Positions 16,604-42,988 of a stretch of DNA of 64,000 nucleotides are shown here, piece after piece. A model generated the notes under the pieces. That model was given only the letters and a program-made list of their open reading frames with translations. It searched no databases and had not been told where the DNA came from. Every line of letters starts with the position of its first letter. Position 1 is the first letter of the stretch. The position numbers and the translations under genes were made by a program. Location: the NCBI GenBank assembly GCA_000165345.1, contig CM000430.1, forward strand, positions 320,001 through 384,000, given 5' to 3'.

Positions 16604-19192
16604 CTAAACAATCGAGTATATAGTATCTCCAGCAATCATAAGTCTATTTTCTTCTTCTAAGATCCGTAAAACTTCCTTTATATCCTTGTTAGTGATCATG
16701 AAATTATTCCCTTTCTCTTTTGATTTTGAGATAATATTTTTTAATAGTTCCTCCTCGAGCATCGCTTCAAGGCCTGATTCAGAAAATTGTTCTGCAATAC
16801 ATGAAGTAATGAATTTTTTCTTAAAATCAGCTAGCTCAAAATCTCCATGGTCAGTATTGCTTCCTTCTCTAAGAATATTTGCTGCAGCAAGAGCAACTTG
16901 GTGGCCACGAGCAGCAGACTCTTTACGGTTAATTTTTTCCCTACTGGGAGTGACAATTGAACTTGGAGGAGGAGCAATAATGCTATGTTCATTTTCTTCT
17001 AGAAAATTTAACTCGGGAGTTTTGCTTGGATGATTTGATCTTTGGTACTTTTTTTCTTCTCTCCTTTTATTCCTTGAATTATCTTCCTGTTGTAGTTCGT
17101 TTTCGATATCTTTCTCAAATACTACATTAAGCAGACTCTCTTTTTCAATAACTTCTCCAAACATTGCATAGCTGAGCAATTCAAATGCAATCAACACGTC
17201 TTCTGGGATTACAGAATCTCTCATCTTTAATTTTGAGTGTGCTGTCGCTAATCTAATTATCCCTTCAAGTGTACGAGTTGTGCAAGTGGTGCCACCCTTG
17301 CTTTGATTCATGCACTTAGCCCTTAATTCGGTAAAAATTCTCGCTACTAGCTCAGCTGCTTCATCGGTTAATTTTGGGGTATTTCTAACATATTTACAAT
17401 AATGAATATATTTCCTTAAAAATGACGTTGTTAATACTTTATCTTCAGATGAACCCTTTGAGTTATTTTGAGATCTCTTATCTGCTATTTTATTAGATAG
17501 AGGTTGCCAAATATCGTTCATCTCATTTTTCTCATTTGAATCATTATCTTTGTACTCAGGCTGTATAACAAAATTATTGTTTGCCTTATTTATTCTTGTA
17601 TCATTTATTGATGAATTCTTATTATATCTAACTTGTGCAAGAACTTGTGCAGCGATTTTTCGATCTTGCTGAGAGTTTCTAGAATCTTTTACAATAAATA
17701 TTAAATCAAACCTTGACAATAAAGAATCAGGAAAAGCAATTTGCCTGCTAAGTTCCATAAAGTCATCAAAATGGCCATATACTGGGTTTGCAGCTGCAAA
17801 AATAGAACATCTTGCATTCAGAGAAGCCTGTATTCCTGCCTTAGCAATAGTAACTCTCTGTTGTTCCATAACTTCGTGGATTGCAACCCTATCTGAAAAA
17901 CTCATTTTATCAAATTCATCAATACATACTATTCCTCTATCTGCTAATACTGTTGCTCCAGCTTCTAGTCTTCTTTCCTTTGTATCTGGATCATGAGTAA
18001 CTGCCGCAGTTAAGCCTACTCCTGAACAGCCCCTTCCTGTGGTACTAATTGCCAACGGAGCAATTGACATAACGAATCTTAACAATTGAGATTTACCACA
18101 AGAAGGTTCTCCTATTAACAATGTATGTATATCGCCCCTGATATGTGTTCCATTTTCAAGATTATGTTCTGCACCCCCTAATATCCCCAGCAATAAGCCT
18201 TTTTTAATGTATTCATGCCCACAAAGGGAGGATGCAAATGATCTTGACAAAATCTCAAAAGCGTCATCTCTATTTGAAATCTCTTTCATTATTCTTATTT
18301 CTTGAGGAGTTAATTCAGGAGAAGTAACATTTTTATTTAGTAATTGAATATTATTTGCAACAATTACAACCTTAAAAATTCCAGTTATTGCATTGTTTTC
18401 TCGTCTTGAAATTGGTTTGTAGACCCCCACAATCTTAACTCTATCCCCAGGCTTAATTGTCTCAACCAAATCATCTTCTGCTATTATTTCAATGCTCCTA
18501 GGTAGCTGCCCAGTAGGTATCATTTCAGGCAACTCCTGTAGTGTCATTTTTTGGGTATCTTTATATCTGCATAAGCCTATTTCCACCTCCATTTTGTTAC
18601 CTTGTCCATCTTCTGATGGAACGCCACTCTGAATATAACGATCTTTTATTAAGCAAGAAATATCGCGATGCCCTCTAACTTCGACAAAAGCCTGATTTGC
18701 TCCACCTGAAATATCATTTTGACCAATTAAATGGCCTTTGGAAATATGGACAGATTTAACTAATTTCGGTTTAACAATAGAGCATTGCGAAATTATACCT
18801 TCAACACAAACCATTTTGTTAATATTACTTGCAGTAAGGCCACGCGGCGTCAGATGATTACGTCCAAACCAACCACTGAACCCAACCCTCGCATTAAATT
18901 GTGAAGATTTTAATGGCGAATTTTTATCAATCTCTCTTTCTAGATCCACTAAATCTTTAATTACCTCTTCAAATGGGGATACATACAAGTAAGGCTCATT
19001 GATAATTTTCTGGGGAAGTTCATCACTTATCTTCCTTAAATCACCTAATTCTATAAGAATACGCCCTGACTCTATATTTTCAACTGCCATTTGCTTGATT
19101 TTGGACGAATATTCGTCATTACCTTGCAAAAAACTTTTATATACTTGAATAAGTTGCTCAGAGAGCTCGCTGTCTGAAAGACTACTAAGCAT
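16604..19192 (-). CDS. MCM3: DNA replication licensing factor MCM3
   Basis: MCM box [53 protein letters not shown]...[12 protein letters not shown] is collinear with human MCM3 [53 protein letters not shown]...[12 protein letters not shown]. Walker A [11 protein letters not shown]. Acidic Ser-rich C-terminus. Confidence 0.85.
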   Translation of the reverse strand: [862 protein letters not shown]

Positions 19193-19558
19193 CTTTAATA
19201 GATAATTCTATTCAGAATGTACGCACCTAGAACTGATTCTGAGTAGAATAACTTTTTTGCCACTTAAAATACTAGCTTGTTATAAATTAAAAAAAACATG
19301 AAGTGTGGGGAATCTTAAGTAGGCGCCCGATACAAAGTCAGAGTTGAAAACGAAGTGTAAAAAAAAAAAAAATCTATGAATACAACACATAATTTTGAAG
19401 GCTAACTCGCATAACACTTTATTAGACAAACGGTTTAACCCTATTCTATTTAAATACACAGTTTACATTATTTTATTATTAAGTAATGGCGATCTCTAAT
19501 GCTGTAAATCTGCAATTTTAGCCAAATTAGCAACATTTGGTCGTAAATTATCAATATT

Positions 19559-21109
19559 TTATGTATCCAATTCTTCTATATCTTCTATCTCTTTCATATG
19601 TTTGCTTATATCTTTTCTTTTGAACATCTCTTTTACATCTGTGTTACATAGAATTTGCTTATATATTGGTCCTATTGGATTATATTTAAAAGAATCAACC
19701 AGCCACGGATGTTTTAGTGCTTGCTGGCAAGATTGAATTCTTTTCTTTGGATCCCATTGTAAGAGCCTTATACATAGGTCTTGTGCTAAAGGAAAATCAG
19801 GTAAAGGCGGCGCGTCGAATTGAAATCCTCCTTGATCACTTATTACCTTTAGCACTTCCAAAGCTTTAGGGTAATCGCACATTAAGTCAATCCTAAGTGG
19901 AGGAATTCCTGTCATTAGTATATAGAGTATTATCCCTATACTCCATAGGTCTGAAGCTGCAGAATATTCACCTCCATTTAATACTTCGGGGGCAAGATAA
20001 CCGAATGTGCCAACTAGCCTCTTCTTCATCCTAATCATTTGTACGTGCGGTTTGCTATCCATTAGCTCGCAAGTGTCAAAATCAACCAGTACAACCTCAA
20101 AATACTCCTTAGAAGACTTTAATGAAAGGTGAGCAATACTTTCCTCTTTGCTTTTTATTTCTTGTCCTAATTTGTCATCGGTCCCTTCAAAAGTAGAAAA
20201 TGATGATGCTGACATTGGAGAATATGGTTTTTCCTCTCTTCTTTTGTATCTGAACATAATATTTTCAGGTTTTACATCACGATGAAGCATCTTTAAGCAA
20301 TGTAAATGGTTCACACTTTCTAATATTTGTCTAATAATATATTTACAAGTTTCTTCCGGAATAGCTTGCTCTGTAATTAAAAATTGAAAAAGTTCTCCGC
20401 CTTCCAAGCCTTCCATTACCAGATAAAAATTTTCCTCATCTTCAAGAACTTGGTAAATTTTCATTACATTAGGATGATATGGTAAATTTAATAATTTCAA
20501 ACATAGTTTTTTCCAAATTGAATAACTTCCGGGAAATGATGACATAATTCTAGTTTTTTTAACTACTTTTATAACAACTGGAAATCCTGTTGCAATATGC
20601 TTTGCCCAATAAAGTTTTGGACGATTATTATTCTCTCTTTCTGGGTTTCCATTCCCACTCACAGCGTTATCAGATTTATCTTGCGATCTTTTGTTGCTAT
20701 TAATTTTTGAAATTATTAAAAAATAGTCGTCTATTCTTACACCCAGTTTTGTTAAGTTAGCATAGCAGCCAAGGAGAGTATCAGGAGTAACATCAGAATA
20801 ATCTTTTTTATCAGAGCTTTTGATTGAGGAAATTTCATGTTCATGAATACGTTTAGTCTTTAGTCCCTTATTTATTATGGATTCATATTCATTTGATTCG
20901 ATTGACCTTTTTCGTGAAAAAGCTTTATCAGTATGAAACTTTTGATTTATACCATCTAGTAGCAATAAAAGTGGTTTCTCCTCACTTGTTACATATTTAT
21001 TGGATTCCTGGCAAGCACTAATGTTACTTCCGAAGTTATCATTAGTAAACAGGAATTTGTTATCTTTTAGTGCAAATGAGTTATTCCCCGAACCATTGCA
21101 TTTGGACAT
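19559..21109 (-). CDS. Ser/Thr protein kinase with a divergent N-lobe
   Basis: HRDVKPENIMF catalytic loop, VVIKVV (VAIK-like), GTFGYLAPEV activation segment, DLWSIGIILY. It has DFD where DFG is expected and no clear GxGxxG loop. About 190 aa of low-complexity N-terminal extension. Confidence 0.75.
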   Translation of the reverse strand: MSKCNGSGNNSFALKDNKFLFTNDNFGSNISACQESNKYVTSEEKPLLLLLDGINQKFHTDKAFSRKRSIESNEYESIINKGLKTKRIHEHEISSIKSSDKKDYSDVTPDTLLGCYANLTKLGVRIDDYFLIISKINSNKRSQDKSDNAVSGNGNPERENNNRPKLYWAKHIATGFPVVIKVVKKTRIMSSFPGSYSIWKKLCLKLLNLPYHPNVMKIYQVLEDEENFYLVMEGLEGGELFQFLITEQAIPEETCKYIIRQILESVNHLHCLKMLHRDVKPENIMFRYKRREEKPYSPMSASSFSTFEGTDDKLGQEIKSKEESIAHLSLKSSKEYFEVVLVDFDTCELMDSKPHVQMIRMKKRLVGTFGYLAPEVLNGGEYSAASDLWSIGIILYILMTGIPPLRIDLMCDYPKALEVLKVISDQGGFQFDAPPLPDFPLAQDLCIRLLQWDPKKRIQSCQQALKHPWLVDSFKYNPIGPIYKQILCNTDVKEMFKRKDISKHMKEIEDIEELDT

Positions 21110-21694
21110 TTTAATATGCTCAATTTTTCATATGCCCTTTGATTGCATACAGATGTTTGTTTCTTCCTTTACATAAATAAAAACAGTATTATTATGATTT
21201 GTCTGATTAAAATTGCATGTAGATCTTTTTAGCGCAAAGATCCCCTTATGCTCGGGTTGCAGCGTTTGACCACTTCTTTTCAATTAATAAAATTTTTGCA
21301 AATTAAATATTAAATTAAACTGTATTAATGCTATAAATGTAAGTACTAAATGTCAATATTTCGATATATTTACAATGAAAATACCACTAAAAAAATCGTA
21401 ATACATTTTCGTAATTTTAATGTTAATAATAAATAAATATTGCCTCTACTGGATATACTAGGGTTTCACAGTTATTAAAGATCAAATTAGTTATTATAGG
21501 TCAGCTTATTATATTTACCGACTAATTTTCAGAAACTATCCCTTTTACAAATCAAATAACAACTGCGGTTTATTCCAATGTTAGTAAAATTGCTAGAGGC
21601 GGGGCAATGCTGTTGCTAATTGATAAGGACAAGTACGAAGGTTCAAAATCAAGAGTTATTATGATCTTTGAATACGGTGATTATTATTCATATC

Positions 21695-22453
21695 ATGAAT
21701 ATTAATAAAAATGAGGTGAGTCTTTCACCTTTAAATAGTTTATCAACCCAGTTAGATTCTAATACTAATAAGGAAAACCACTTTGATGTAAAAAATCAGA
21801 AGCCACAGTGCATAAGTGATAATACTGAAGCAAACATAAAACACGAAGATTTTGAGAAGTCTAATATAAAGAAAAAATATAAAAAAAATCTTATTTGGGA
21901 TGGCCCAAGGTGGGATCTGGCACATTTTGATCCGACAATGAGTGCAAGAGAAAGGAAAAAACTTGTTTATTATGAGGCTCTGTTCAACAAACTTGAGAAT
22001 GATGTAGTGTTGAGATGCAACGAACACAATAATAAAAATGTGAAAAATCCAAACCAGAAGAGGAAAATGCGTAATAACACTTTAGACTCAAGTCCCAAAA
22101 CAGAATTGAGCGATTTGAAGGGAATGAAAGAACATAAAAGCGATATTGATTCAGGAGATAGTTCTAAATCAGATAACTATAGCAAGGCTAATCAAGAAAA
22201 GTTTGTAAATTCTCACAATTCTAATCAAATTGGTATTTTGTTAACTCCTGATAGAAGTTTTTCACGAAGTGAAAACATTATATCGCCAATTTTAGAGGAG
22301 CCTAGAAAGTGTAGTAGATCGAATGCAAATAGTCAAACGCCAGCAAATGAAAGGGAAAATAGTAGCATTCGAAGATCCAATGATTGGAGAGTAAAATTAT
22401 TGAATAAAAGATGTTCTCTCCAAGCTACACCTTATAGAGGAGCAACTCCATAA
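21695..22453 (+). CDS. Hypothetical low-complexity (Asn/Ser/Lys-rich) protein
   Basis: Open frame of 252 codons from the first ATG. The ORF-track start at 21668 is a TTG. No recognisable domain. Basic, probably nuclear. Confidence 0.35.
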   Translation: MNINKNEVSLSPLNSLSTQLDSNTNKENHFDVKNQKPQCISDNTEANIKHEDFEKSNIKKKYKKNLIWDGPRWDLAHFDPTMSARERKKLVYYEALFNKLENDVVLRCNEHNNKNVKNPNQKRKMRNNTLDSSPKTELSDLKGMKEHKSDIDSGDSSKSDNYSKANQEKFVNSHNSNQIGILLTPDRSFSRSENIISPILEEPRKCSRSNANSQTPANERENSSIRRSNDWRVKLLNKRCSLQATPYRGATP

Positions 22454-22958
22454 AAGCAATTTTTATCAATTGCATATTTGGCTCTCTTAGTTATAAGTGC
22501 ATTTATATCCTATATATAGCTTAATTTGTTTTAATATTTCATATGAAAATTAAAGTTGTATCTTTACCAAACAGTTGAAATTTTTAATAATTTCAATATC
22601 TACGGCTCATTATAATTTTCTTTAACCCGACTAAGATTACTTTAGGAAGTTCTTAGTTATTGTAAACGGTTTAGATCGGCCTCATTCACTAGATTTTAAA
22701 GAATGAAATGAACGCAACGAAAGTTGGGATTTTTGCTCTTGCATAAAATAAATGTTTAAAATAGAAATTTTTAATTTACATAATAAAGAAGAATCTTCAA
22801 AGTTAATGGATTTTTTATTTATTTAAATAAAATATATGCTTTATTTCAATTTAATATATTCAAAGAAGATTCGATTTTGTTCAAAATTCGTGACTCATTT
22901 CATACAAGGAATAGTAGCCATATTTTCGCGGTATAGATTTTAAACAAATAGATAAACA

Positions 22959-23718
22959 ATGTACTATAACAATGAAGAGTTAGAGATGTTTATGAAAAGA
23001 GCGATTGAACTAGTAGGTAAAGCTAATATCTTTGTAAAGCTGTAATAATTTATTATTTTTAGTCAGAATTTGCAGTAAAAAGTAACGAAGTCCCTGTTGG
23101 TTGCGTTATTGTAAATAGAACCACAAAGGAAATTGAATCTGAAGCTCACAACGAAACTAATATATCGAGAAACGTAAGCTATAGAAACTATAAATTAAGT
23201 AAATAAACATATATTACTCAGGGAACTAGACACTGTGAAATTGTTGCTTTAGAAAAATTAATAGTTAAGTTAAAGAGTACTAGTGGAAAAATAAATAATT
23301 CAACTCGACTGATTACTCAAAATCAAGATGAATACAGTAACACAAGATTTAGGATTAATCTAGGGGATATTTATGACTTATTCGTAACTGTGGAGCCTTG
23401 TATTATGTGTATTGGATTTATCGACCAGATGGGTAAGTTTCCATTTAAAGTGACTCCTTTTTTTTTTTAAATAATTTAGGAATACATAATATATTTTATG
23501 GATGTAAAAACTATCGCTTTGGTGGTTGCGGATCTGTATTGGACTACCATCATTTAAATAAAAGCTCCAAAATCATCTTAACTTCCGGAATCTGTGAAAA
23601 TGAATCAATTAAAATACTAAAAGAGTTTTATGAAATTGGGAACCCAAAAGCTCCAGAAAATAAGAGAAAAAGGCCACTAAAAGCATTAAATTGCACATTA
23701 CCATTGTACAAAAGTTAA
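22959..23718 (+). CDS. TAD2: tRNA-specific adenosine deaminase subunit TAD2/ADAT2 (CDA fold). Four exons: join(22959..23012,23063..23173,23222..23432,23480..23718).
   Basis: Not in the ORF track. Exon 2 SEFAVKSNEVPVGCVIVNRTTKEIESEAHNETNISRN. Exon 3 GTRHCEIVALEKL...DLFVTVEPCIMCIGFIDQMG (HAE-type and PCxxC zinc motifs). Exon 4 IHNIFYGCKNYRFGGCGSVLDYHHL... (human ADAT2: VVYGCQNERFGGCGSVL). Introns of 50, 48 and 47 nt with GTAGGT/GTAAGC/GTAAGT donors and TAG/CAG/TAG acceptors. Phases are consistent (0, 0, 1). An alternative exon-1 donor at 23034 would give a 29-nt intron. Confidence 0.7.
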
Positions 23719-23727
23719 TTATATTTT

Positions 23728-26094
23728 CTAAAATGCAGTTAGATTTACAGGTCTGCCATTAAGATTCATTATTCTTGCAGGTGTAATTGGCTTCTCGTCC
23801 GTATTCACAAGTCTAGTGCTGCTTTTTGGGCTTAGAGAATAATTGAATGTGCTACTACTATTCGGAGTTTTCATTGTTACCGAATTGAGTGCGTAGCTTT
23901 TTTTATTAGGTAATTCTCTAAACTGACAATTTTCACCTTTAGACTTTTCAAATTTGGTATTAAATTTGTCACTAAAGTTGTTTTGCTTTAATTCAGAATT
24001 AATCTGATCAAACCACCCGAAAGAATTATCTATGGTTTGATACTTAATTATTTGATTGTATTGGATCAATTGGTTGTCAAGGCATCTTGTAATAACTAAT
24101 ACAGCAGCATCATTGCAAAAATTGTTGCAAAAATTGGTTGCAGAATTTAAAGAGACAACTCTGCCATTTGCGTTATATCCATATCCTCTTTTGCAGTAGT
24201 CGTTTGTTTTTACTATTAGCTTTATTGAGTTTGTATTCATAAAGTCTTCAACGTCATAAGAATCATAGCAATACATATTTTTTTCAAAAATTTCGGCATC
24301 TCTTGTGTGTTCTACATCCGTCTCATTTATAAAATTATGAGAGTCATCAGAACTTGTTTGATCTATCATTTCTGACCAAAGACATTCAAACACGTATCTA
24401 TCACTCTCAGATAATCTATTATTACAATCACTTTTGTTTATTAATTCTGATTTTACGTGGATTGGCTTGGGGATACCTGATAAATTTTCAACACTTTTAA
24501 TACTTTTACCAATTCCTGAATGTAGACATAACACTTGATCATCAATCAACGCAGAAATCGAAAAAAATTCAAAGGCATCATTAATCCTTTCCCAAATAGC
24601 CTCACCATTTATTCCAAATTTCTGCTTACATTCAAAATGAAATCCATAAGTCAAGTTAACTGATGCATCTTCATGGTTGCCACGCAATAAAAATATCTTA
24701 TCAGGAAACATTATCTTTAGAGAAAAGAGTATAGAAATGACCTCTAACGAAAACTTTCCTCCATCAACATAGTCTCCCAAGAAAACATATTTCATCGATA
24801 ATATGTCCCCTCTATGGAAATGAGGCCATGAGAATTGTTCGAAAAAATACAATAGGTCAATTAGCTGCCCATGAATGCCTCCAAAAATTCTAACAGAGTT
24901 ATTTCCCTTTATTTTAATCAGACTATCCTCACCTCTGATAATTTGCACAGCTCGATCACACAAATCCATTATTTCTGAGCAATTTAATATGTTGTTTATA
25001 TACATTTTTTCTTCAAAATCAGATTTATTTTCAGAGTTTGTTAAAATATTCATATAGTATTCTATTACTCGCTGTTCCAAAGAACTAAATGCCTGATTTT
25101 GGAAATTGTAAGGGAATAAATCCAATATACCTTTAGAATTTAGTTTTATGTCATTTTGGACTTTACCAGCCTCAAAGGAAAGTTTATTGAGTCTGCTATT
25201 CATATTTGTTTGTTCTGCGAGTGCAGAAGTCAATTTTAACCCAGCTAACTCCGTATGCTGAACTTGCTCCAAATTTTGATCAAAGGTGCTTTTGAGGCAA
25301 TTTTTTGAAGAAAAATTTGATATAAATGACCCATGTTTATTAATATCATTATTTGAACTATATTCAGCATTAATATTGTCGTTGATAAAATCCACCAAAT
25401 CTAGATGAGTTCGCAATAGCCAGCCTGTTCCTTTTAAGATATTATTTTTCACAGAATTATAAAATGCATTAAAACCAAATACTCCATCGTAATGAGCAAT
25501 TAAATGAATAGCATATTCTCTTGCTTTAGACTCGCTCATTGATATTGTTTTTTTAGCTAATGATCTGATGGAAGAAATATGAATAATCATTCTTTTTAAT
25601 TCATTTAAGTTAAGGAGGCCATTCCTATCTGTGTCATAATAGAGGAAGATAAATTGTAATCTAAGCTGCCCAATACTAGTTTTAGGATCATTTTTCGCTA
25701 AAGGACTTAAACTTAACATTCCTGATGTAAATTCAACTTCACTAACAATACCATCTTGGTTTCGGTCCATGAGGTTATAAAATACAGTTCTATATTGCTC
25801 GTCTGTAATTGGGTTATCATTTAATATATTCAAAAACTCGTCCTGTGTTAAGTAGCCGTTTTTTCTTTTCCCGTATTTAGAAACAATGTCACGTAGTATT
25901 GAATATCTCTCTTGCCAGCCCATTTCTAATATAGCTTCATCCATAAGCCTGCTAAAACTTTTCCAGGGGTGCCACTGCTCTGGACGAATAACTTTGGAAG
26001 AGATTCTTTCAGCATTCTTAGCGCCTGCGTGAAAATCAGTGTTTGCAAATTTAGAGTTGAGAATATTAGGCCCATAAATTGAAGAGACTTCCAT
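23728..26094 (-). CDS. EF-hand-containing PPP-family Ser/Thr protein phosphatase (EFPP-like), with substitutions in catalytic motifs
   Basis: N-terminal EF-hand loops (DRNQDGIVSEVEF, DTDRNGLLNLNEL) precede a calcineurin-like phosphoesterase core FLGDYVDGGKFSLEVISILFSLKIMFPDKIFLLRGNHE. Motif 1 reads GGIHGQ where GDxHG is expected. Motif 2 reads GDYVDGG where GDxVDRG is expected. Both were checked at nucleotide level. Confidence 0.8.
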   Translation of the reverse strand: MEVSSIYGPNILNSKFANTDFHAGAKNAERISSKVIRPEQWHPWKSFSRLMDEAILEMGWQERYSILRDIVSKYGKRKNGYLTQDEFLNILNDNPITDEQYRTVFYNLMDRNQDGIVSEVEFTSGMLSLSPLAKNDPKTSIGQLRLQFIFLYYDTDRNGLLNLNELKRMIIHISSIRSLAKKTISMSESKAREYAIHLIAHYDGVFGFNAFYNSVKNNILKGTGWLLRTHLDLVDFINDNINAEYSSNNDINKHGSFISNFSSKNCLKSTFDQNLEQVQHTELAGLKLTSALAEQTNMNSRLNKLSFEAGKVQNDIKLNSKGILDLFPYNFQNQAFSSLEQRVIEYYMNILTNSENKSDFEEKMYINNILNCSEIMDLCDRAVQIIRGEDSLIKIKGNNSVRIFGGIHGQLIDLLYFFEQFSWPHFHRGDILSMKYVFLGDYVDGGKFSLEVISILFSLKIMFPDKIFLLRGNHEDASVNLTYGFHFECKQKFGINGEAIWERINDAFEFFSISALIDDQVLCLHSGIGKSIKSVENLSGIPKPIHVKSELINKSDCNNRLSESDRYVFECLWSEMIDQTSSDDSHNFINETDVEHTRDAEIFEKNMYCYDSYDVEDFMNTNSIKLIVKTNDYCKRGYGYNANGRVVSLNSATNFCNNFCNDAAVLVITRCLDNQLIQYNQIIKYQTIDNSFGWFDQINSELKQNNFSDKFNTKFEKSKGENCQFRELPNKKSYALNSVTMKTPNSSSTFNYSLSPKSSTRLVNTDEKPITPARIMNLNGRPVNLTAF

Positions 26095-26628
26095 TTTATA
26101 AGAAAATTAAGTGACTATACTAGCACTTAGAAGCGTGTAGAGTTTTATTTTAAAATGCCTGTTAAAAAAGCGAGGTTATCTCTTCATGAAGTCTTAGATC
26201 TTTCTTCGATTCTTAAGGAGTAAAGCCACGAAGATTCCCGCAATTTAAATTCCCCACTGAAATTAGTCTATTAATCAACTTAGTGGGGTACAGAACGGTT
26301 TGCATTCAGATTGAAGTGACTAGTAATACAAGTTTTGAAACGGTTGTTATTTAAACTAAGTAGAACATTAATATTCCAACTTTGGATATTTACACCACAA
26401 CACACTAGAAATAAATTTAAAGTTATTAGACTAGATTCTAACTAGGGATCTATTACCCGCATTAGATATTAATAGTTAATTTCCCCTAACAATACGATAT
26501 ATATATGAATTACTCTTTCAAATACCACGGTATTAATACCAATATTCAATGTGAACTTTCTGGATGTTTCGACCTTTAGTACCTACTCGCCTTATTGAGG
26601 ATTTGTTAAACCAATAATGCTGTATGAT

Positions 26629-26893
26629 TTAGTCAAGTAAAGTAGTAATAGCGATGAAAGTTACCAAAGAAAATATAAGTGTTGTGAATAGTATGGACAA
26701 ATATGAAGAGAGTCTAAGCGGAGACAAAAATACAGACTTCGAAAAAATGAGCAATCATCAAAATTTGTCTATATAAACTTACTGGTAACTCCAAGTAATT
26801 GTTAATGAATGGAATTCCAAAGAAAGTAAACGTAACATATAAAAAGATAGAAAATGTAATAAATGAAAGTATAATTCCGTTTAAGCGATCCAT
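26629..26893 (-). CDS. Small two-TM protein, tentatively DPM2-like (dolichol-phosphate-mannose synthase regulatory subunit). Two exons: complement(join(26629..26736,26783..26893)). An unspliced alternative is complement(26714..26893).
   Basis: Below the ORF-track threshold. Exon 1 MDRLNGIILSFITFSIFLYVTFTFFGIPFINNYLELP ends at CCA|GTAAGT. A 46-nt intron leads to SVFLSPLRLSSYLSILFTTLIFSLVTFIAITTLLD*. PFINN..YLELP resembles DPM2 PFIDSQHVIHKYFLP between two TM helices. Short and tentative. Confidence 0.35.
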
Positions 26894-26988
26894 ATCTTCC
26901 TATTACATTTTATTATTCTCAAAAAACAAATAAATAAATTTGCGCTTATGGGGTACTTGAATTCACATTTTTTTATTTTAGTATTTTC

Positions 26989-28395
26989 TCAAATACTGCT
27001 TTTTGTAATAAATAGTAATGTGAAATAACAGAAAGAAATAATAGTTAAAATAAATGCTGAGTAATATGGCATTGCAGAAATATTGAATCTTTCATTTTGA
27101 TCATGACGAAAATTGCGAACAGTTGTAATTGATTCATATGATATTGTATTATAACCAATTCTTTTATGATTAATTACAAATTTATAGACTCCCCAAACTT
27201 CAGGGATTTTAAATGTGCTGCTAAATGTTGATCTTCGAGACTCTTCTTCGCTTTGCTTCAAGTAAGTTCGTATATATGGATCTAGCATCGTAAATTCAAG
27301 TTGAATATCCTCTGAGTCGTAATTTTCCCATTTATCGTTAGAAAATTTATAAAATTCAGCGGAGAAACGAACTATATCTTCAACTGTATAATTCAATGTT
27401 TCATCGTAATTTTCAACAATCGTTTCAAAGCTGTCATTCAGCTTTCTGTGTGAAATTTCTGCAATTTTTATTAATCCTTTTTGTTGAAATGACCATAGAA
27501 AAATATCTTTGCAAAATTCAGAATTTTCACTATTACTTTTTATTGTTTCGTCGCTACACAATTTTCCGTCGCTAGTAAATGTTGCTCTTGCGCCGTTTCT
27601 ACCTTGAAGAGCCATTACTAACCCAATTTCTTCCCCAGTACTAGAACTAATGTAGTTTCCAAACAAACTAATAGATTTTGATTTTATGTCATTATTAACT
27701 GAAATACATGTATGGCAAGCTGTCAATATTGGAATTACAAGCTCGTTACTAGGAATAGAATTGGAAAAGCCTACGCCATGATATAAAATCCCTTTTTTCG
27801 TAAAATTTTCTGGAGAAAAAATTGCATCTGATTCAATAAAATTGTTTGAAAATATTTTTGATGATTTACCAACTCCATCTGTAGTAACATCAAATAAGCG
27901 AGTATTTTGAGGTAGAAATTCTATTCCTGCACACTCCTTTGCTAATCGAATTATTGCCTTATTTTCTCCAATATTTAAATTTGTGTCATCGATTGTATCA
28001 ACAAATATCATCAAATTTCCTCCTCTATCAATGAAATTTAAGATTTTTGGTACGTATGACATTGGAAAGGAAGGGTGCACATCTGAATTATCTATATCTA
28101 GAATAATAATGTTGTTATAGAGAAACTCATCATAAAGAAATAACTCTAGATCTTGCTCCTGGGAATAACGATTATAAGTTTTTATTGTGATTTCATGGCC
28201 GGCTGAGACGAGATTTGAAATGAATATTGAGTACTTTTGTTTGATGCTTTTTTCGTTGGAATTTGTCAAAATTAGTAATTCCAAGCTGGCTAGATCTGCA
28301 TTAAATATTTGTTTAGGAGCTTCACCAAGTGTACCAGAACCTGCTTCTATTAAATATATAAAAGAATAGATGAAAAGAATAAAAAGCTTGAGCAT
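26989..28395 (-). CDS. OST48: Oligosaccharyltransferase 48 kDa subunit (OST48/DDOST/WBP1)
   Basis: Signal peptide, luminal domain and C-terminal TM. HEITIKTYNRYSQ...DEFLYNNIIILD...ILNFIDRGGNLMIF...ECAGIEF matches human DDOST FELTFKTADDPSL...GEFLYDNLIIFS...ISAFIDGGGSVLVA...ECGIEFD. The C-terminus DSEDIQLEFTMLDPYIRTYL...IPEVWGVYKFVINHKRIGYN...ERFNISAMPYYSAFIL matches [20 protein letters not shown]...[20 protein letters not shown]...ERFIPSAYPYYASAF. Confidence 0.85.
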   Translation of the reverse strand: MLKLFILFIYSFIYLIEAGSGTLGEAPKQIFNADLASLELLILTNSNEKSIKQKYSIFISNLVSAGHEITIKTYNRYSQEQDLELFLYDEFLYNNIIILDIDNSDVHPSFPMSYVPKILNFIDRGGNLMIFVDTIDDTNLNIGENKAIIRLAKECAGIEFLPQNTRLFDVTTDGVGKSSKIFSNNFIESDAIFSPENFTKKGILYHGVGFSNSIPSNELVIPILTACHTCISVNNDIKSKSISLFGNYISSSTGEEIGLVMALQGRNGARATFTSDGKLCSDETIKSNSENSEFCKDIFLWSFQQKGLIKIAEISHRKLNDSFETIVENYDETLNYTVEDIVRFSAEFYKFSNDKWENYDSEDIQLEFTMLDPYIRTYLKQSEEESRRSTFSSTFKIPEVWGVYKFVINHKRIGYNTISYESITTVRNFRHDQNERFNISAMPYYSAFILTIISFCYFTLLFITKSSI

Positions 28396-28646
28396 TTTTT
28401 TTTTACTTGATTTTTTTTTTTGTTCAAGTCAAAACAGAGGGAAAAGAGGGGTAACTGTTAATATTGCCGTTATTTGTAATTGCAGTATTTATTGCAATAA
28501 TAAAGTAGATAAATCTTAATTCAAACCTCTATTCGAATAAATTAAAGCTATATATTATTGAACATTGTTAACAGGTTACTTATAAATTAATCGTTGCTTT
28601 TATTTAAAATATTCTTTTATTGCCATCCATTTTAGTGGATAAATAA

Positions 28647-29156
28647 ATGTCAGTTAGAATAATAACAAATTACGGAGACCTAAAATTTGAGCTATTCTGT
28701 TCTCAATGCCCAAAAGCCTGCAAAAATTTCCTTGCTCTTTCAGCAAGTGGCTACTATAAAAATACAATTTTTCACAAGAATATAAAGGGATTTATCATAC
28801 AAGGTGGTGACCCAACTGGCACAGGAAAGGGCGGAGAGAGTATCTATGGGAGATATTTTGATGATGAGATTTATCCAGAATTGAAGTATGATAGGAGAGG
28901 TATTCTTTCGATGGCAAGCAAAGGCGCTAGTAAAAAACCAAATACAAACGGTTCACAGTTTTTTATAACTTATTCAAGTTTACCGCAACTTAATGGAGAG
29001 TATGTTATTTTTGGTAAGCTGATAGATGGTTTTGAAACTCTAAATACGTTAGAAAACTGTCCATCTGACAAATCCCACAAACCAATTGACGAAATAATTA
29101 TTAAAGATATAGTTATTCATTCAAACCCTATTGCTGACCAAGAAATACTTGATTAA
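28647..29156 (+). CDS. PPIL3: Cyclophilin-type peptidyl-prolyl cis-trans isomerase, PPIL3-like
   Basis: MSVRIITNYGDLKFELFCSQCPKACKNFLALSASGYYKNTIFHKNIKGFIIQGGDPTGTGKGGESIYG is near-collinear with PPIL3 [68 protein letters not shown]. Confidence 0.9.
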   Translation: MSVRIITNYGDLKFELFCSQCPKACKNFLALSASGYYKNTIFHKNIKGFIIQGGDPTGTGKGGESIYGRYFDDEIYPELKYDRRGILSMASKGASKKPNTNGSQFFITYSSLPQLNGEYVIFGKLIDGFETLNTLENCPSDKSHKPIDEIIIKDIVIHSNPIADQEILD

Positions 29157-29212
29157 ACACAAATATTTACTTTTGTTTTGTACCGCTCAAATATTTACTT
29201 AATCACAACACA

Positions 29213-29566
29213 ATGGACCAAAAAGAATTAGACGAAGTAGCTGTCAGCCAACAAGAAAATGAGTTCGATGAGCTTTTGCCATATTCCAAGATAGCTAAAA
29301 TTTTAAAACTTGTAACTGATAAAAAATTTACAAAAACATCAGTTAAGCTAATACAATCTTCTACTACAAAGTTCATTAAGGAAATCTCAGAACTTTCGGA
29401 GAAACAATCAAGAATTCGCTCTAAAAAATTGGATAAGGATCAAGCTGTGATTATTCAAAAGGAAGATGTAATTTCAGCAATCCAAAAAGGTGGGAAAAAA
29501 TTTAGTTTTGCCAATTTTTCTACAGAATTTCTTGAAGACCGTTTCTGGAACATGGAAATAAGTTAA
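29213..29566 (+). CDS. Histone-fold protein (CBF/NF-Y, Dpb4, CHRAC or NC2 family)
   Basis: LPYSKIAKILKL...KFTKTSVKLIQSSTTKFIKEISELSEKQSRIRSKKLDKDQAVIIQKEDVISAIQ fits the CBFD_NFYB_HMF histone-fold pattern. The exact subfamily is not resolved. Confidence 0.55.
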   Translation: MDQKELDEVAVSQQENEFDELLPYSKIAKILKLVTDKKFTKTSVKLIQSSTTKFIKEISELSEKQSRIRSKKLDKDQAVIIQKEDVISAIQKGGKKFSFANFSTEFLEDRFWNMEIS

Positions 29567-29760
29567 AATTATTCTGAATATTCTGCTCATATGTTGTTTA
29601 GGAATATTAGTTTGCACGATCTCTTTATTCAAGAAATAGCAGAAATTTATGAGCTTTTTTTTTGCGCGCCCTTTAGGCTTGTTTAGATAAGCTGCAATAA
29701 ATAAATTACATAGTATAGGCGTTAATCAAACGAATTAATTATTGCTTCTTCATTATTACC

Positions 29761-30771
29761 ATGTCTGAGTCGCACGAAATATTTATGGAGGATATTTCTC
29801 TTCTTCCAGGATGGATATTACGTAACTTATCATTGATGCGTGAAATTGATAAAAAAAGCAATGATTTACAAATTACTCTTGAGGAAAAACGTGGCAAATA
29901 TTTGAAAGAGTTAAGCAAAGTAGCTAATTCTGACTCGCAAAATATTGACAAAAATGCCAGTATTTTTAAGATAGATGAGATCAACGAACTACAAAGGGAA
30001 CTAAAAGCGCTGTTAAAAGAGAAAATCGCAATATCAGACCAAAGCGTCCACTATATTAGATATGATGGTGAAATTTTAAAAAAACACTACGAACAGTTAA
30101 GAGAATCATTTACAGAAAACTTCATAAATAATAATGATTCTGGTTCATCAAATAGCTATTCAGGAAGAAATAGTCTTCAAGGTCAAATAAACTTTAAAAA
30201 CCCAGGTTCAAATAACACTATTAATAATATAGCAAATAACCTTAATGGCAATGAATTAAATACTTGCCGCAACTCAATTTCTGAAACATATAACTCTAAC
30301 GATAACTGGAATAATGAATCACATAATGGGGATAAAAATATTGAGTCTCACAATAAACCGTCATTTGCTCATGAAAGCATTAGCCGAGCATCAAAAAGGC
30401 GAAGATCATCTGCTGCAACTCATATTAAGGACACCTTCGATCAAATTTCAAAGAAACCAAATGCTTTTGTTGGCACATCAACTAGCCAAAAATCAGATCA
30501 GAATAATTTATCAAATGATAATCAAAATCAACTTTGTTCAATATGTGAGGGTATTGAATTGATTAATAATAAGTTTGTTAAGTGCGAATGTTGTTCAAAT
30601 AATATGCATGCTACATGCAGCTGGTCAAGCAATCCCTTTCTTTGTAGAAAATGCTGTAAAAAAAGTTCTATTCAACCCTCAATTACGTATGATATTGAGT
30701 ATTCTGCTTCACTAATAAATACTCCTAAATCAGATAACACTAAAATCTCAAAGGGCTCAAGAAAAAAGTAG
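29761..30771 (+). CDS. ING-family (inhibitor of growth) PHD-finger chromatin reader
   Basis: N-terminal ING domain IFMEDISLLPGWILRNLSLMREIDKKSNDLQ matches ING LEDYLEMIEQLPMDLRDRFTEMREMDLQ. C-terminal C4HC3 PHD finger CSICEGIELINNKFVKCECCSNNMHATCSWSSNPFLCRKCC. An Asn/Ser-rich linker lies between them. Confidence 0.65.
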   Translation: MSESHEIFMEDISLLPGWILRNLSLMREIDKKSNDLQITLEEKRGKYLKELSKVANSDSQNIDKNASIFKIDEINELQRELKALLKEKIAISDQSVHYIRYDGEILKKHYEQLRESFTENFINNNDSGSSNSYSGRNSLQGQINFKNPGSNNTINNIANNLNGNELNTCRNSISETYNSNDNWNNESHNGDKNIESHNKPSFAHESISRASKRRRSSAATHIKDTFDQISKKPNAFVGTSTSQKSDQNNLSNDNQNQLCSICEGIELINNKFVKCECCSNNMHATCSWSSNPFLCRKCCKKSSIQPSITYDIEYSASLINTPKSDNTKISKGSRKK

Positions 30772-42903: not shown

Positions 42904-42988
42904 GCGTAGATGCCCGAGTCGGTCTAAGGGGCCAGACTTAAGATCTGGTGTACACATGTACTCCAGGGTTCGAATCCCTGTCTACGCA
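42904..42988 (+). tRNA. tRNA-Leu (anticodon UAA), with a long variable arm
   Basis: Acceptor stem GCGTAGA/TCTACGC plus discriminator A. D-arm CCCGAGTCGGTCTAAGGGG. Anticodon stem-loop CCAGA-CTTAAGA-TCTGG. Variable arm TGTACACATGTACT. T-arm CAGGG-TTCGAAT-CCCTG. No CCA encoded. No intron. Confidence 0.85.

Follow-up and report, generated by a model that had tools for sequence, protein, structure and literature searches.

The question raised by this locus is whether a phosphatase-like protein of Cryptosporidium parvum that carries EF-hands is an enzyme at all and, if it is not, what the protein is kept for. The gene lies in a window of 64,000 nucleotides (the whole stretch of DNA that was analysed; GenBank assembly GCA_000165345.1, contig CM000430.1, positions 320,001 to 384,000), in which positions 23728..26094 on the minus strand hold cgd2_1640 (CpPPP8, EFPP), a complete single-exon coding sequence of 788 amino acids plus stop, exactly as a preliminary description had placed it and as the ORF list gives it. 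The product is an exact match to C. parvum Iowa II XP_626384.1/EAK88809.1/Q5CTT5. With good confidence, we regard it as a member of the alveolate EFPP/PPP8/BCC5 family which is catalytically dead yet maintained, and which, by homology, is likely to be a Ca2+-responsive scaffold of the basal complex.

The preliminary description had read the protein as a candidate pseudophosphatase; this is correct but has been known since 2023, and the core claim is not new. Morano, Rudlaff & Dvorin (Nat Commun 2023, PMC10317984) named cgd2_1640 CpPPP8, of the PfPPP8 pseudophosphatase family, and gave it among the PfPPP8 homologues in their Supplementary Table 1. C. parvum gDNA served as template for amplifying the domain, and the glycines which they mutated, numbered G406 and G445, are the same two that had been flagged from the sequence. 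Their fragment (residues 370-683, made in E. coli and without the EF module) did not hydrolyze pNPP, the only substrate used, either as the wild type or as the G406D/G445R reversion mutant (PMC10317984); the pNPP check that had been proposed from the sequence is essentially this assay. As even the "restored" mutant showed no activity, the negative result may conceivably owe something to misfolding of the fragment. Literature searches on cgd2_1640 and the Cryptosporidium basal complex returned no localisation or functional data for the protein, and cgd2_1640 itself was found in one paper of the library searched. What is added here to the 2023 paper is modest: an inventory of the lost residues, the dating of the loss to a stem lineage, and its independence from Plasmodium.

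The EFPP-type assignment was upheld by the presence of an EF-hand module at the N-terminus, lying immediately upstream of a BSL/PPKL-like PPP domain, and by homology to named members. Exhaustive profile searching with HMMER retrieved proteins of Vitrella (3.4e-176), T. gondii (the 2066-aa EFPP/BCC5, 5.3e-115) and Besnoitia (2.4e-113), and PPP8 of P. falciparum (1.5e-107) and P. chabaudi (2.7e-106); some non-family PPPs (e.g. Thecamonas, Thraustotheca) score in the same range as these members, and orthology to PfPPP8 and TgBCC5 is based upon architecture and profile scores, together with the assignment in the literature. Word-indexed searches with the full protein or with a trimmed EF-plus-catalytic profile returned no Toxoplasma or Plasmodium members, a limit of sensitivity, since HMMER found them. 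A scan with NCBIfam, which holds bacterial and archaeal models, gave only sub-threshold noise, as expected.

The catalytic domain (aa 366-690; 24025..24999, minus strand) was identified as a degenerate PPP domain of the PP1/BSU1-like type based on sequence matches, the AF2 model and Foldseek. Pfam Metallophos matched at residues 404-579 (3e-18), and the best relatives of solved structure were BSU1 (PDB 9tp7, E = 2.8e-47), PP1 (about 3e-39), PP2A and calcineurin, the last being less similar in sequence than BSU1 or PP1. The AF2 model had a pLDDT of about 90 across the domain, and its top Foldseek matches were Glc7/PP1 (E about 2e-24, target-normalised TM 0.83-0.88). These data place the domain in the PPP-family Ser/Thr phosphatase fold of the metallophosphoesterase superfamily, and the dead domain is predicted from the model to keep the fold of PP1. 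The BSU1/BSL/PPKL phosphatases, whose catalytic domain is the closest solved one by sequence, carry N-terminal Kelch repeats, not EF-hands, and have intact active sites, as in the Heracleum BSL sequence.

A competent PPP was taken to display GDxHG, GDxVDRG and GNHE together with HGG, R221, H248 and Y272, with D64, H66, D92, N124, H173 and H248 as metal ligands, R96 and R221 as phosphate binders and H125 as the acid. CpPPP8 departs from this signature by D64G, R96G, G174S, D208E, R221E, H248N and Y272F, and the two catalytic substitutions counted in the preliminary description were thus an undercount. Both of those are confirmed by alignment and codon comparison: the PP1 Asp64 position of GDxHG is Gly at residue 406 (VRIFGGIHGQ, codon GGC, 24877..24879) and the Arg96 position of GDxVDRG is Gly at residue 445 (FLGDYVDGGKF, codon GGA, 24760..24762; these and all following coordinates are on the minus strand). 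In addition, HGG has become HSG at S526 (24517..24519), which adjoins the retained metal ligand H525, the His173 equivalent, and the alignment shows WSDP changed to WSEM (E575-M576, 24367..24372) with loss of the Asp208 equivalent, RAHE to KTND with loss of the metal ligand His248 at N631 (24202..24204), and SAPNY to SATNF (at 651) with loss of Tyr272 at F655 (24130..24132). A Cryptosporidium-specific insert (aa 580-606, 24277..24357; predicted disordered, pLDDT < 50) holds E604 in its 3' part; E604, at the start of EKNMYCY, aligned with PP1 Arg221 behind these 27 amino acids, the pairing of RGVSFTFG with EKNMYCYD being ungapped and read by eye from the alignment contexts. LRGNHE (GNHE at 472) and SATNF are present, but the earlier statement that the PPP core is otherwise well conserved is inaccurate, as G174, D208, R221, H248 and Y272 are altered too. 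Among the canonical active-site residues C. parvum retains H66, D92, D95, N124, H125 and H173. The further decay beyond G406 and G445 offers a concrete explanation of why restoring two residues brought no rescue, and one which can be tested with a fuller reversion set: G406D, G445R, S526G, E575D/M576P, E604R, N631H and F655Y.

Four of these changes are common to all intestinal species: D64G, G174S, and the losses at H248 and R221. Gly occupies residue 406 in 12/12 sequences of the intestinal clade, where C. muris has Asp (GAT); position 526 is always Ser in that clade, against Gly in C. muris, and position 631 takes N, S or G there, against His in C. muris. Five states (G/R/Q/E/F) were observed among species at the R96 position, whose entropy puts it at the domain's 92nd-96th percentile; the Arg codon of C. 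meleagridis at this site is AGA, close relatives having GGA and C. muris CGT. D92, D95, N124, H125 and H173 are invariant in the named intestinal species, a retention that is not exceptional, since 34-40% of the domain positions are likewise invariant. H66 is kept in most species and is Tyr in C. xiaoi and C. ryanae, while sequence P0005 carries D92N and N124K.

All intestinal-clade Cryptosporidium share the decay of the active site, whereas C. muris and the Toxoplasma, Besnoitia, Vitrella and dinoflagellate relatives have canonical residues in the active-site table. The C. muris orthologue (P0013; XP/RN66) resembles CpPPP8 in its gene neighbours, with the order cyclophilin-OST48-EFPP-deaminase-x-kinase-MCM conserved, in its EF module and in its C-terminal PITP...NLTAF tail; unlike CpPPP8, it retains GDIHG, GDYVDRG, GNHE, HGG, WSDP, RAHE and TNYC. 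Its Arg lies one column off R221 (NENRVNVYNY), a site where placement by MAFFT and HMM is ambiguous, and was read, with uncertainty, as retained. That this canonical copy is a paralogue was rejected on the single match per species and the conserved synteny. Judged by its residues, the C. muris protein is potentially still an enzyme; the C. andersoni orthologue was grouped with it from the supplement of PMC10317984.

The losses in PfPPP8 are D92N and D95N (GNLINRG), with D64, R96, R221, H248 and Y272 kept, whereas CpPPP8 has kept D92 and D95 and lost the other five. Since Plasmodium lost other residues, the inactivations in Plasmodium and in intestinal Cryptosporidium appear to be independent, and the loss of catalysis is placed in the stem, the common ancestor of the intestinal clade. 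That ancestor would have lost one ligand for each active-site metal (D64 to G, H248 to N/S/G) along with the phosphate-binding arginine R221, HGG becoming HSG, and the R96 position, D208 and Y272 now vary among the intestinal species. With such losses CpPPP8 would be incapable of dephosphorylation by the PPP mechanism. We propose only tentatively, and with rather more doubt than conviction, that a transition from enzyme to pseudoenzyme took place within the genus at one syntenic gene, the gastric C. muris and C. andersoni perhaps still having Ca2+-regulated phosphatases, and the intestinal ancestor having lost catalysis independently of Plasmodium with the gene kept under purifying selection. 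If this is true, PPP8/EFPP would at no time have needed catalysis for its conserved (basal-complex) role, and the failure of G406D/G445R would be due to at least five further lost residues, not to a globally incompetent fold. C. muris and the intestinal species would make a natural pair, active versus dead, in which the need of PPP8/EFPP for catalysis can be addressed.

That the gene is a pseudogene in decay, or that the two codons are sequencing or assembly artefacts, has nothing in its favour but the loss of catalytic residues; these readings scarcely merit belief and were rejected. At least 12 species or assemblies of the intestinal clade have intact ORFs of 745-796 aa, and dN/dS over the whole protein was 0.1-0.18. 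For the catalytic domain dN/dS was 0.086 (parvum-hominis), 0.19 (parvum-meleagridis), 0.09 (parvum-chipmunk) and 0.06 (xiaoi-ryanae); in the more distant species pairs dS approaches or exceeds saturation, and the comparisons of parvum with canis, felis or muris were left unused on account of saturation at synonymous sites (dS > 1.9 or undefined). Both glycines recur in independent assemblies (other C. parvum strains, C. hominis, C. tyzzeri). Conservation of the Gly codons was seen in C. hominis, the chipmunk genotype and C. ubiquitum, and in PMC10317984, where the domain was obtained from gDNA, the same glycines are numbered. This disposes of the sequencing error that had been named as a possible refutation. 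Lineage-specific changes in the catalytic core are about 1.5-3 times more numerous in the intestinal lineages than in C. muris, while those in the EF module are symmetric between the two; relaxation is partial and confined to the catalytic domain. The fold is predicted to be kept, catalytic residues are lost and the gene is under selection, as is characteristic of a pseudophosphatase, and since the intact gene, the purifying selection, the PP1 fold and two Ca2+ loops are all kept, a non-catalytic protein is indicated.

An active phosphatase or phosphoesterase using a non-canonical or single-metal mechanism, possibly needing the EF module and Ca2+, is very unlikely. Six canonical residues are kept (H66, D92, D95, N124, H125, H173), Asn631 might in principle ligate a metal, and the published assay was made without the EF module and with pNPP as sole substrate. 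Set against this, one ligand per metal site and both arginines are gone, the replacements vary by species (H248 to N/S/G, H66Y, and D92N with N124K) in the manner of relaxed constraint, and the recombinant domain was inactive (PMC10317984), so that this reading is largely refuted. A trap, in which the dead pocket binds and sequesters phosphorylated Ser/Thr substrates, seems improbable, if somewhat less so. Such a mode is known for STYX and EGG-4/5 and was speculated on in PMC10317984 for PfPPP8, in which the positively charged pocket residues are intact, and C. parvum does retain H125, D95, N124, H173 and H66; but it is without both phosphate-binding arginines (R96 to G, R221 to E), the drift at position 96 (G, R, Q, E, F) takes in acidic and bulky residues, and Y272 and D208 are also altered, which together argue that the pocket is no longer selected for phosphate binding. 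Of the two roles offered in the preliminary description, scaffold or substrate trap, the trap is therefore the weaker for C. parvum.

The N-terminal EF-hand module (aa 60-215; 25450..25917, minus strand; Pfam EF-hand_1/6/7 matches at about residues 69-171) consists of four helix-loop-helix units, two of them with canonical Ca2+ loops, and shows the strongest constraint in the protein (dN/dS 0.04-0.13). By the criterion of 12 residues with ligands at positions 1, 3, 5, 9 and 12, a Gly in sixth place and a hydrophobic residue in eighth, the canonical loops found by regex and alignment were DRNQDGIVSEVE (aa 110-121; 25732..25767, minus strand), kept in all Cryptosporidium and the dinoflagellate relatives, and DTDRNGLLNLNE (aa 154-165; 25600..25635, minus strand), conserved across the genus; their partner loops at 75-86 and about 199-212 are degenerate. 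The counterparts of DTDRNGLLNLNE in T. gondii (DLDADGWLDASE) and P. falciparum (DLDRDGYLNDNE) are canonical-looking as read from sequence. CpPPP8 is thus a predicted Ca2+-binding EF-hand protein, and the Ca2+ sensing suggested earlier is supported, on sequence grounds, by two canonical loops that vary little or not at all across the genus. PPEF/PP7 and calcineurin likewise combine the PPP catalytic fold with EF-hand-based Ca2+ sensing. The EF-hands of PPEF/PP7 are C-terminal, those of calcineurin are on a separate subunit, and all of these are active enzymes; CpPPP8, by contrast, has its EF module at the N-terminus and a dead catalytic site.

Based on homology with PfPPP8 and TgBCC5, CpPPP8 would most likely be located in the basal complex, the ring pinching off daughter merozoites, as a Ca2+-responsive structural or scaffolding part; the marks of such a component, localisation to the basal ring of budding daughters and interaction with MyoJ, CINCH or MORN1, have been shown for those two proteins only. 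PfPPP8 (PF3D7_1018200), the "founding" pseudophosphatase of PPP type in the basal complex of Plasmodium, is required for the integrity of the basal ring (PMC10317984). Like CpPPP8 it has mutated PPP motifs, a canonical EF loop upstream and a recombinant domain inactive on pNPP, but it is 2166 aa long, with long Asn-rich inserts. TgEFPP (TGGT1_269460, BCC5) is described in the literature as a basal-complex phosphatase of Toxoplasma in which an EF-hand has been noted, and it resembles CpPPP8 in giving one continuous match over EF module and catalytic domain (profile 40-655 to residues 870-1541); unlike CpPPP8, all its tabulated active-site positions are canonical, save HGC for HGG. The homologue is essential in Plasmodium and dispensable in Toxoplasma (tachyzoites), and the transfer of function to CpPPP8 is weakened by this difference. 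The biology in question bears on how an important diarrhoeal pathogen forms its daughter cells (merogony).

Two further regions were delimited. The linker between the EF module and the catalytic domain (aa 240-335; 25090..25377, minus strand) is low-complexity, predicted disordered (pLDDT < 50) and fast-evolving, with the highest dN/dS of the protein (0.2-0.47). The C-terminal tail TDEKPITPARIMNLNGRPVNLTAF (aa 765-788; 23731..23802, minus strand) is conserved genus-wide by C-terminal comparison and bears a PITP motif resembling the C-terminal RPITPP of PP1, for which a regulatory role may be envisaged.

The EF-hand phosphatase (EFPP) reading frame at 23728-26094 (minus strand) proved to be real and uninterrupted in the ORF listing of the window, which is approximately 30% G+C and contains long ORFs free of introns. 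Its 788-residue product was an exact match to the C. parvum Iowa II protein cgd2_1640 (CpPPP8; XP_626384.1/EAK88809.1/Q5CTT5). Pfam domains were identified at residues ~69-171 (EF-hand) and 404-579 (Metallophos). By sequence the nearest solved structure was the plant Kelch phosphatase BSU1 (E = 2.8e-47), followed by PP1 (~3e-39), PP2A (~4e-35) and then calcineurin. Based on pattern fit, the EF module carries two canonical Ca2+-binding loops, DRNQDGIVSEVE (110-121) and DTDRNGLLNLNE (154-165), which are invariant or nearly so throughout the genus and conserved in dinoflagellate relatives, while the partner loops at 75-86 and ~199-212 are degenerate. Judged from sequence, the module probably binds Ca2+.

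Active-site positions were assigned using human PP1alpha, with verified residue numbering, as the ruler. Both glycines reported in the preliminary description were confirmed: G406 (GGC, 24877-24879) occupies the position of the metal ligand Asp64, and G445 (GGA, 24760-24762) that of the phosphate-binding Arg96. Sequencing error was rejected, since the same glycines occur in proteins of other C. parvum strains, C. hominis and C. tyzzeri, and since C. hominis, the chipmunk genotype and C. ubiquitum have kept the Gly codons. The preliminary count of two changes was too low, the site being more degraded. Besides D64→G and R96→G, the C. parvum protein shows G174→S (HGG→HSG), D208→E (WSDP→WSEM), H248→N (RAHE→KTND) and Y272→F. 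The sequence around R221 is replaced, with a 27-residue insert (580-606) that is predicted to be disordered; E604 is the residue aligning with R221 without gaps. Both phosphate-binding arginines and one ligand per metal site are therefore gone; H66, D92, D95, N124, H125 and H173 are kept. Residue 582 (~24349-24351, minus strand), within the insert, is polymorphic within the species: its region reads QTSSDD in the window (Iowa II) and QTSFDD in other C. parvum strains, C. hominis and C. tyzzeri.

The gene and the pseudophosphatase conclusion have both been published before. PfPPP8, the founding PPP-type pseudophosphatase (Morano, Rudlaff & Dvorin, Nat Commun 2023; PMC10317984), is a basal-complex protein on which ring integrity in schizogony depends, and cgd2_1640 was given as its C. 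parvum homologue (PMC10317984). Neither CpPPP8 residues 370-683 nor a G406D/G445R reversion mutant hydrolyzed pNPP, which yeast PPT1 did hydrolyze in the same assay (PMC10317984). The mutated residue numbers are exactly those of the two glycines; the activity assay proposed in the preliminary description is thus in essence already available, and supports the pseudophosphatase reading. The fuller list of lost residues added here would explain the failed two-site rescue. C. muris and C. andersoni are already among the sequences aligned, without commentary, in Supplementary Note 1 of that paper (PMC10317984). The T. gondii EFPP is TGGT1_269460 (BCC5), an EF-hand protein in the posterior-cup part of the basal complex with which tachyzoites can dispense. 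In the literature library searched, cgd2_1640 is named in no other paper, and no localization data on the Cryptosporidium protein were found.

Relatives from Cryptosporidium, dinoflagellate-like organisms, perkinsids and gregarines were all that word-indexed searching recovered. When the family profile was run exhaustively in HMMER, these were joined by Vitrella (3.4e-176), a 2066-residue T. gondii protein (5.3e-115, EF module and catalytic domain in one matched stretch), Besnoitia (2.4e-113) and the PPP8 proteins of P. falciparum, P. chabaudi, P. relictum and P. inui (~1e-104 to 1e-116). Scores of some non-family PPPs fall within this range of values too. Architecture, scores and the published assignment point to orthology of CpPPP8 with PfPPP8 and TgBCC5.

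Comparison of these relatives adds a contrast between gastric and intestinal clades. D64→G, HGG→HSG and the losses of H248 and R221 are common to all 12 intestinal-clade sequences (parvum, hominis, meleagridis, chipmunk genotype, ubiquitum, canis, felis, xiaoi, ryanae and three SRA-derived species), among which position 96 is G, R, Q, E or F. C. xiaoi and C. ryanae additionally carry H66→Y. P0005, which is 76% identical and comes from an SRA-derived Cryptosporidium sp., has in addition D92→N and N124→K (GDYVD→GNYVD, GNHE→GKHE) within an intact ORF, a pattern that fits ongoing neutral erosion of the pocket. C. muris, in contrast, is canonical at all tabulated positions, an Arg sitting one column off R221, and canonical sites were also found in Toxoplasma, Besnoitia, Vitrella, Polarella and other dinoflagellate-type relatives. 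Unlike CpPPP8, Plasmodium PPP8 has lost other residues (D92N and D95N). The simplest reading is that the ancestral site was intact and that Plasmodium and the intestinal Cryptosporidium stem were inactivated independently, a point also added here. The P. chabaudi protein (P0187) has, besides D92N/D95N, HGG→HSG and H248→N (RGNEC), an apparent convergence with C. parvum in decay order.

Arg at position 96 was seen in C. meleagridis and in the homologous sequence P0006. The C. meleagridis codon is AGA, which differs from the C. muris codon (CGT) and lies a single step away from the GGA found in close relatives of C. meleagridis. This suggests secondary G→R drift back rather than a retained ancestral Arg. 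Entropy percentiles within the domain (R96, 92nd-96th; D208, 83rd; H248, 74th; Y272, 71st) indicate that former catalytic positions are now ordinary or variable. Nei-Gojobori dN/dS values for unsaturated pairs were, for the whole gene and catalytic domain respectively, 0.13 and 0.086 (parvum-hominis), 0.18 and 0.19 (parvum-meleagridis), 0.12 and 0.09 (parvum-chipmunk; EF module 0.05) and 0.10 and 0.06 (xiaoi-ryanae, approximate because dS is ~1.2-1.5). The gene is therefore maintained, dead domain included; the linker (246-335) evolves quickest (0.2-0.47). In relative-rate counts of lineage-specific catalytic-core changes with six outgroups, C. parvum had 31-39 against 17-25 in C. muris, and C. 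ryanae and C. xiaoi 36-49 against 13-26, with p down to ~1e-5, the tests being mutually non-independent and, for C. parvum alone, no more than marginally significant. Counts for the EF module were symmetric between intestinal and C. muris lineages.

An AlphaFold2 model built from a 22-sequence alignment (mean pLDDT 60.7) was confident in the catalytic domain (~90; residues ~340-575 and 610-690) and of low confidence in the linker (240-335), insert (580-606) and tail (698-788). Since Foldseek matched it in the PDB to Glc7/PP1 structures (E ~2e-24, target-normalised TM 0.83-0.88), the whole PP1 fold is predicted to be retained. The tail (TD)EKPITPARIMNLNGRPVNLTAF (residues 765-788; 23731-23802, minus strand) is conserved in all Cryptosporidium orthologues, canonical C. 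muris included, and its PITP motif resembles the C-terminal GRPITPPR of PP1alpha, where CDK acts on Thr320. In dinoflagellate relatives this region reads FRAPSPMRR. One possibility is that the tail was retained past catalytic death as a docking motif or as a motif for proline-directed phospho-regulation.

The preliminary observation is thus confirmed and its interpretation supported, the scaffold of its two proposals faring better than the substrate trap. The best-supported reading is that CpPPP8 is a non-catalytic, probably Ca2+-responsive scaffold; homology to PfPPP8 and TgBCC5 would place its action in the basal complex as daughters form. The trap model was put forward for PfPPP8 on the grounds that its pocket keeps its basic residues; it is a poor match for C. 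parvum, where neither arginine survives and position 96 is drifting. Residual or non-canonical catalysis is improbable, though the published negative result comes from a bacterially made fragment without the EF module, tested on one artificial substrate.

The C. muris gene is the positional orthologue of cgd2_1640. The order cyclophilin-OST48-EFPP-deaminase-unknown-kinase-MCM is the same in the window, C. muris, C. hominis, C. meleagridis and C. ubiquitum, and OST48 and deaminase genes also flank EFPP in the remaining loci compared. From 16604 to 30771 the window has the same gene order as the corresponding C. muris locus: MCM (16604-19192, minus), protein kinase (19559-21109, minus), a 261-residue ORF with no Pfam match (21668-22453, plus), a multi-exon CMP/dCMP-type (tRNA/cytidine) deaminase (~22959-23718, plus), EFPP, OST48 (26989-28395, minus) and an ING-domain protein (29761-30771, plus). 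The deaminase region shows no single ORF of at least 60 residues because introns split the gene; orthologues are annotated in C. meleagridis, C. ubiquitum and C. muris. The gene is convergent with EFPP, and since 9 bp separate the end of its last exon (23718) from the EFPP stop codon (23728), the two genes must overlap in their 3' UTRs. The sole tRNA found in the window was a tRNA-Leu (anticodon UAA) at 42904-42988 on the plus strand.
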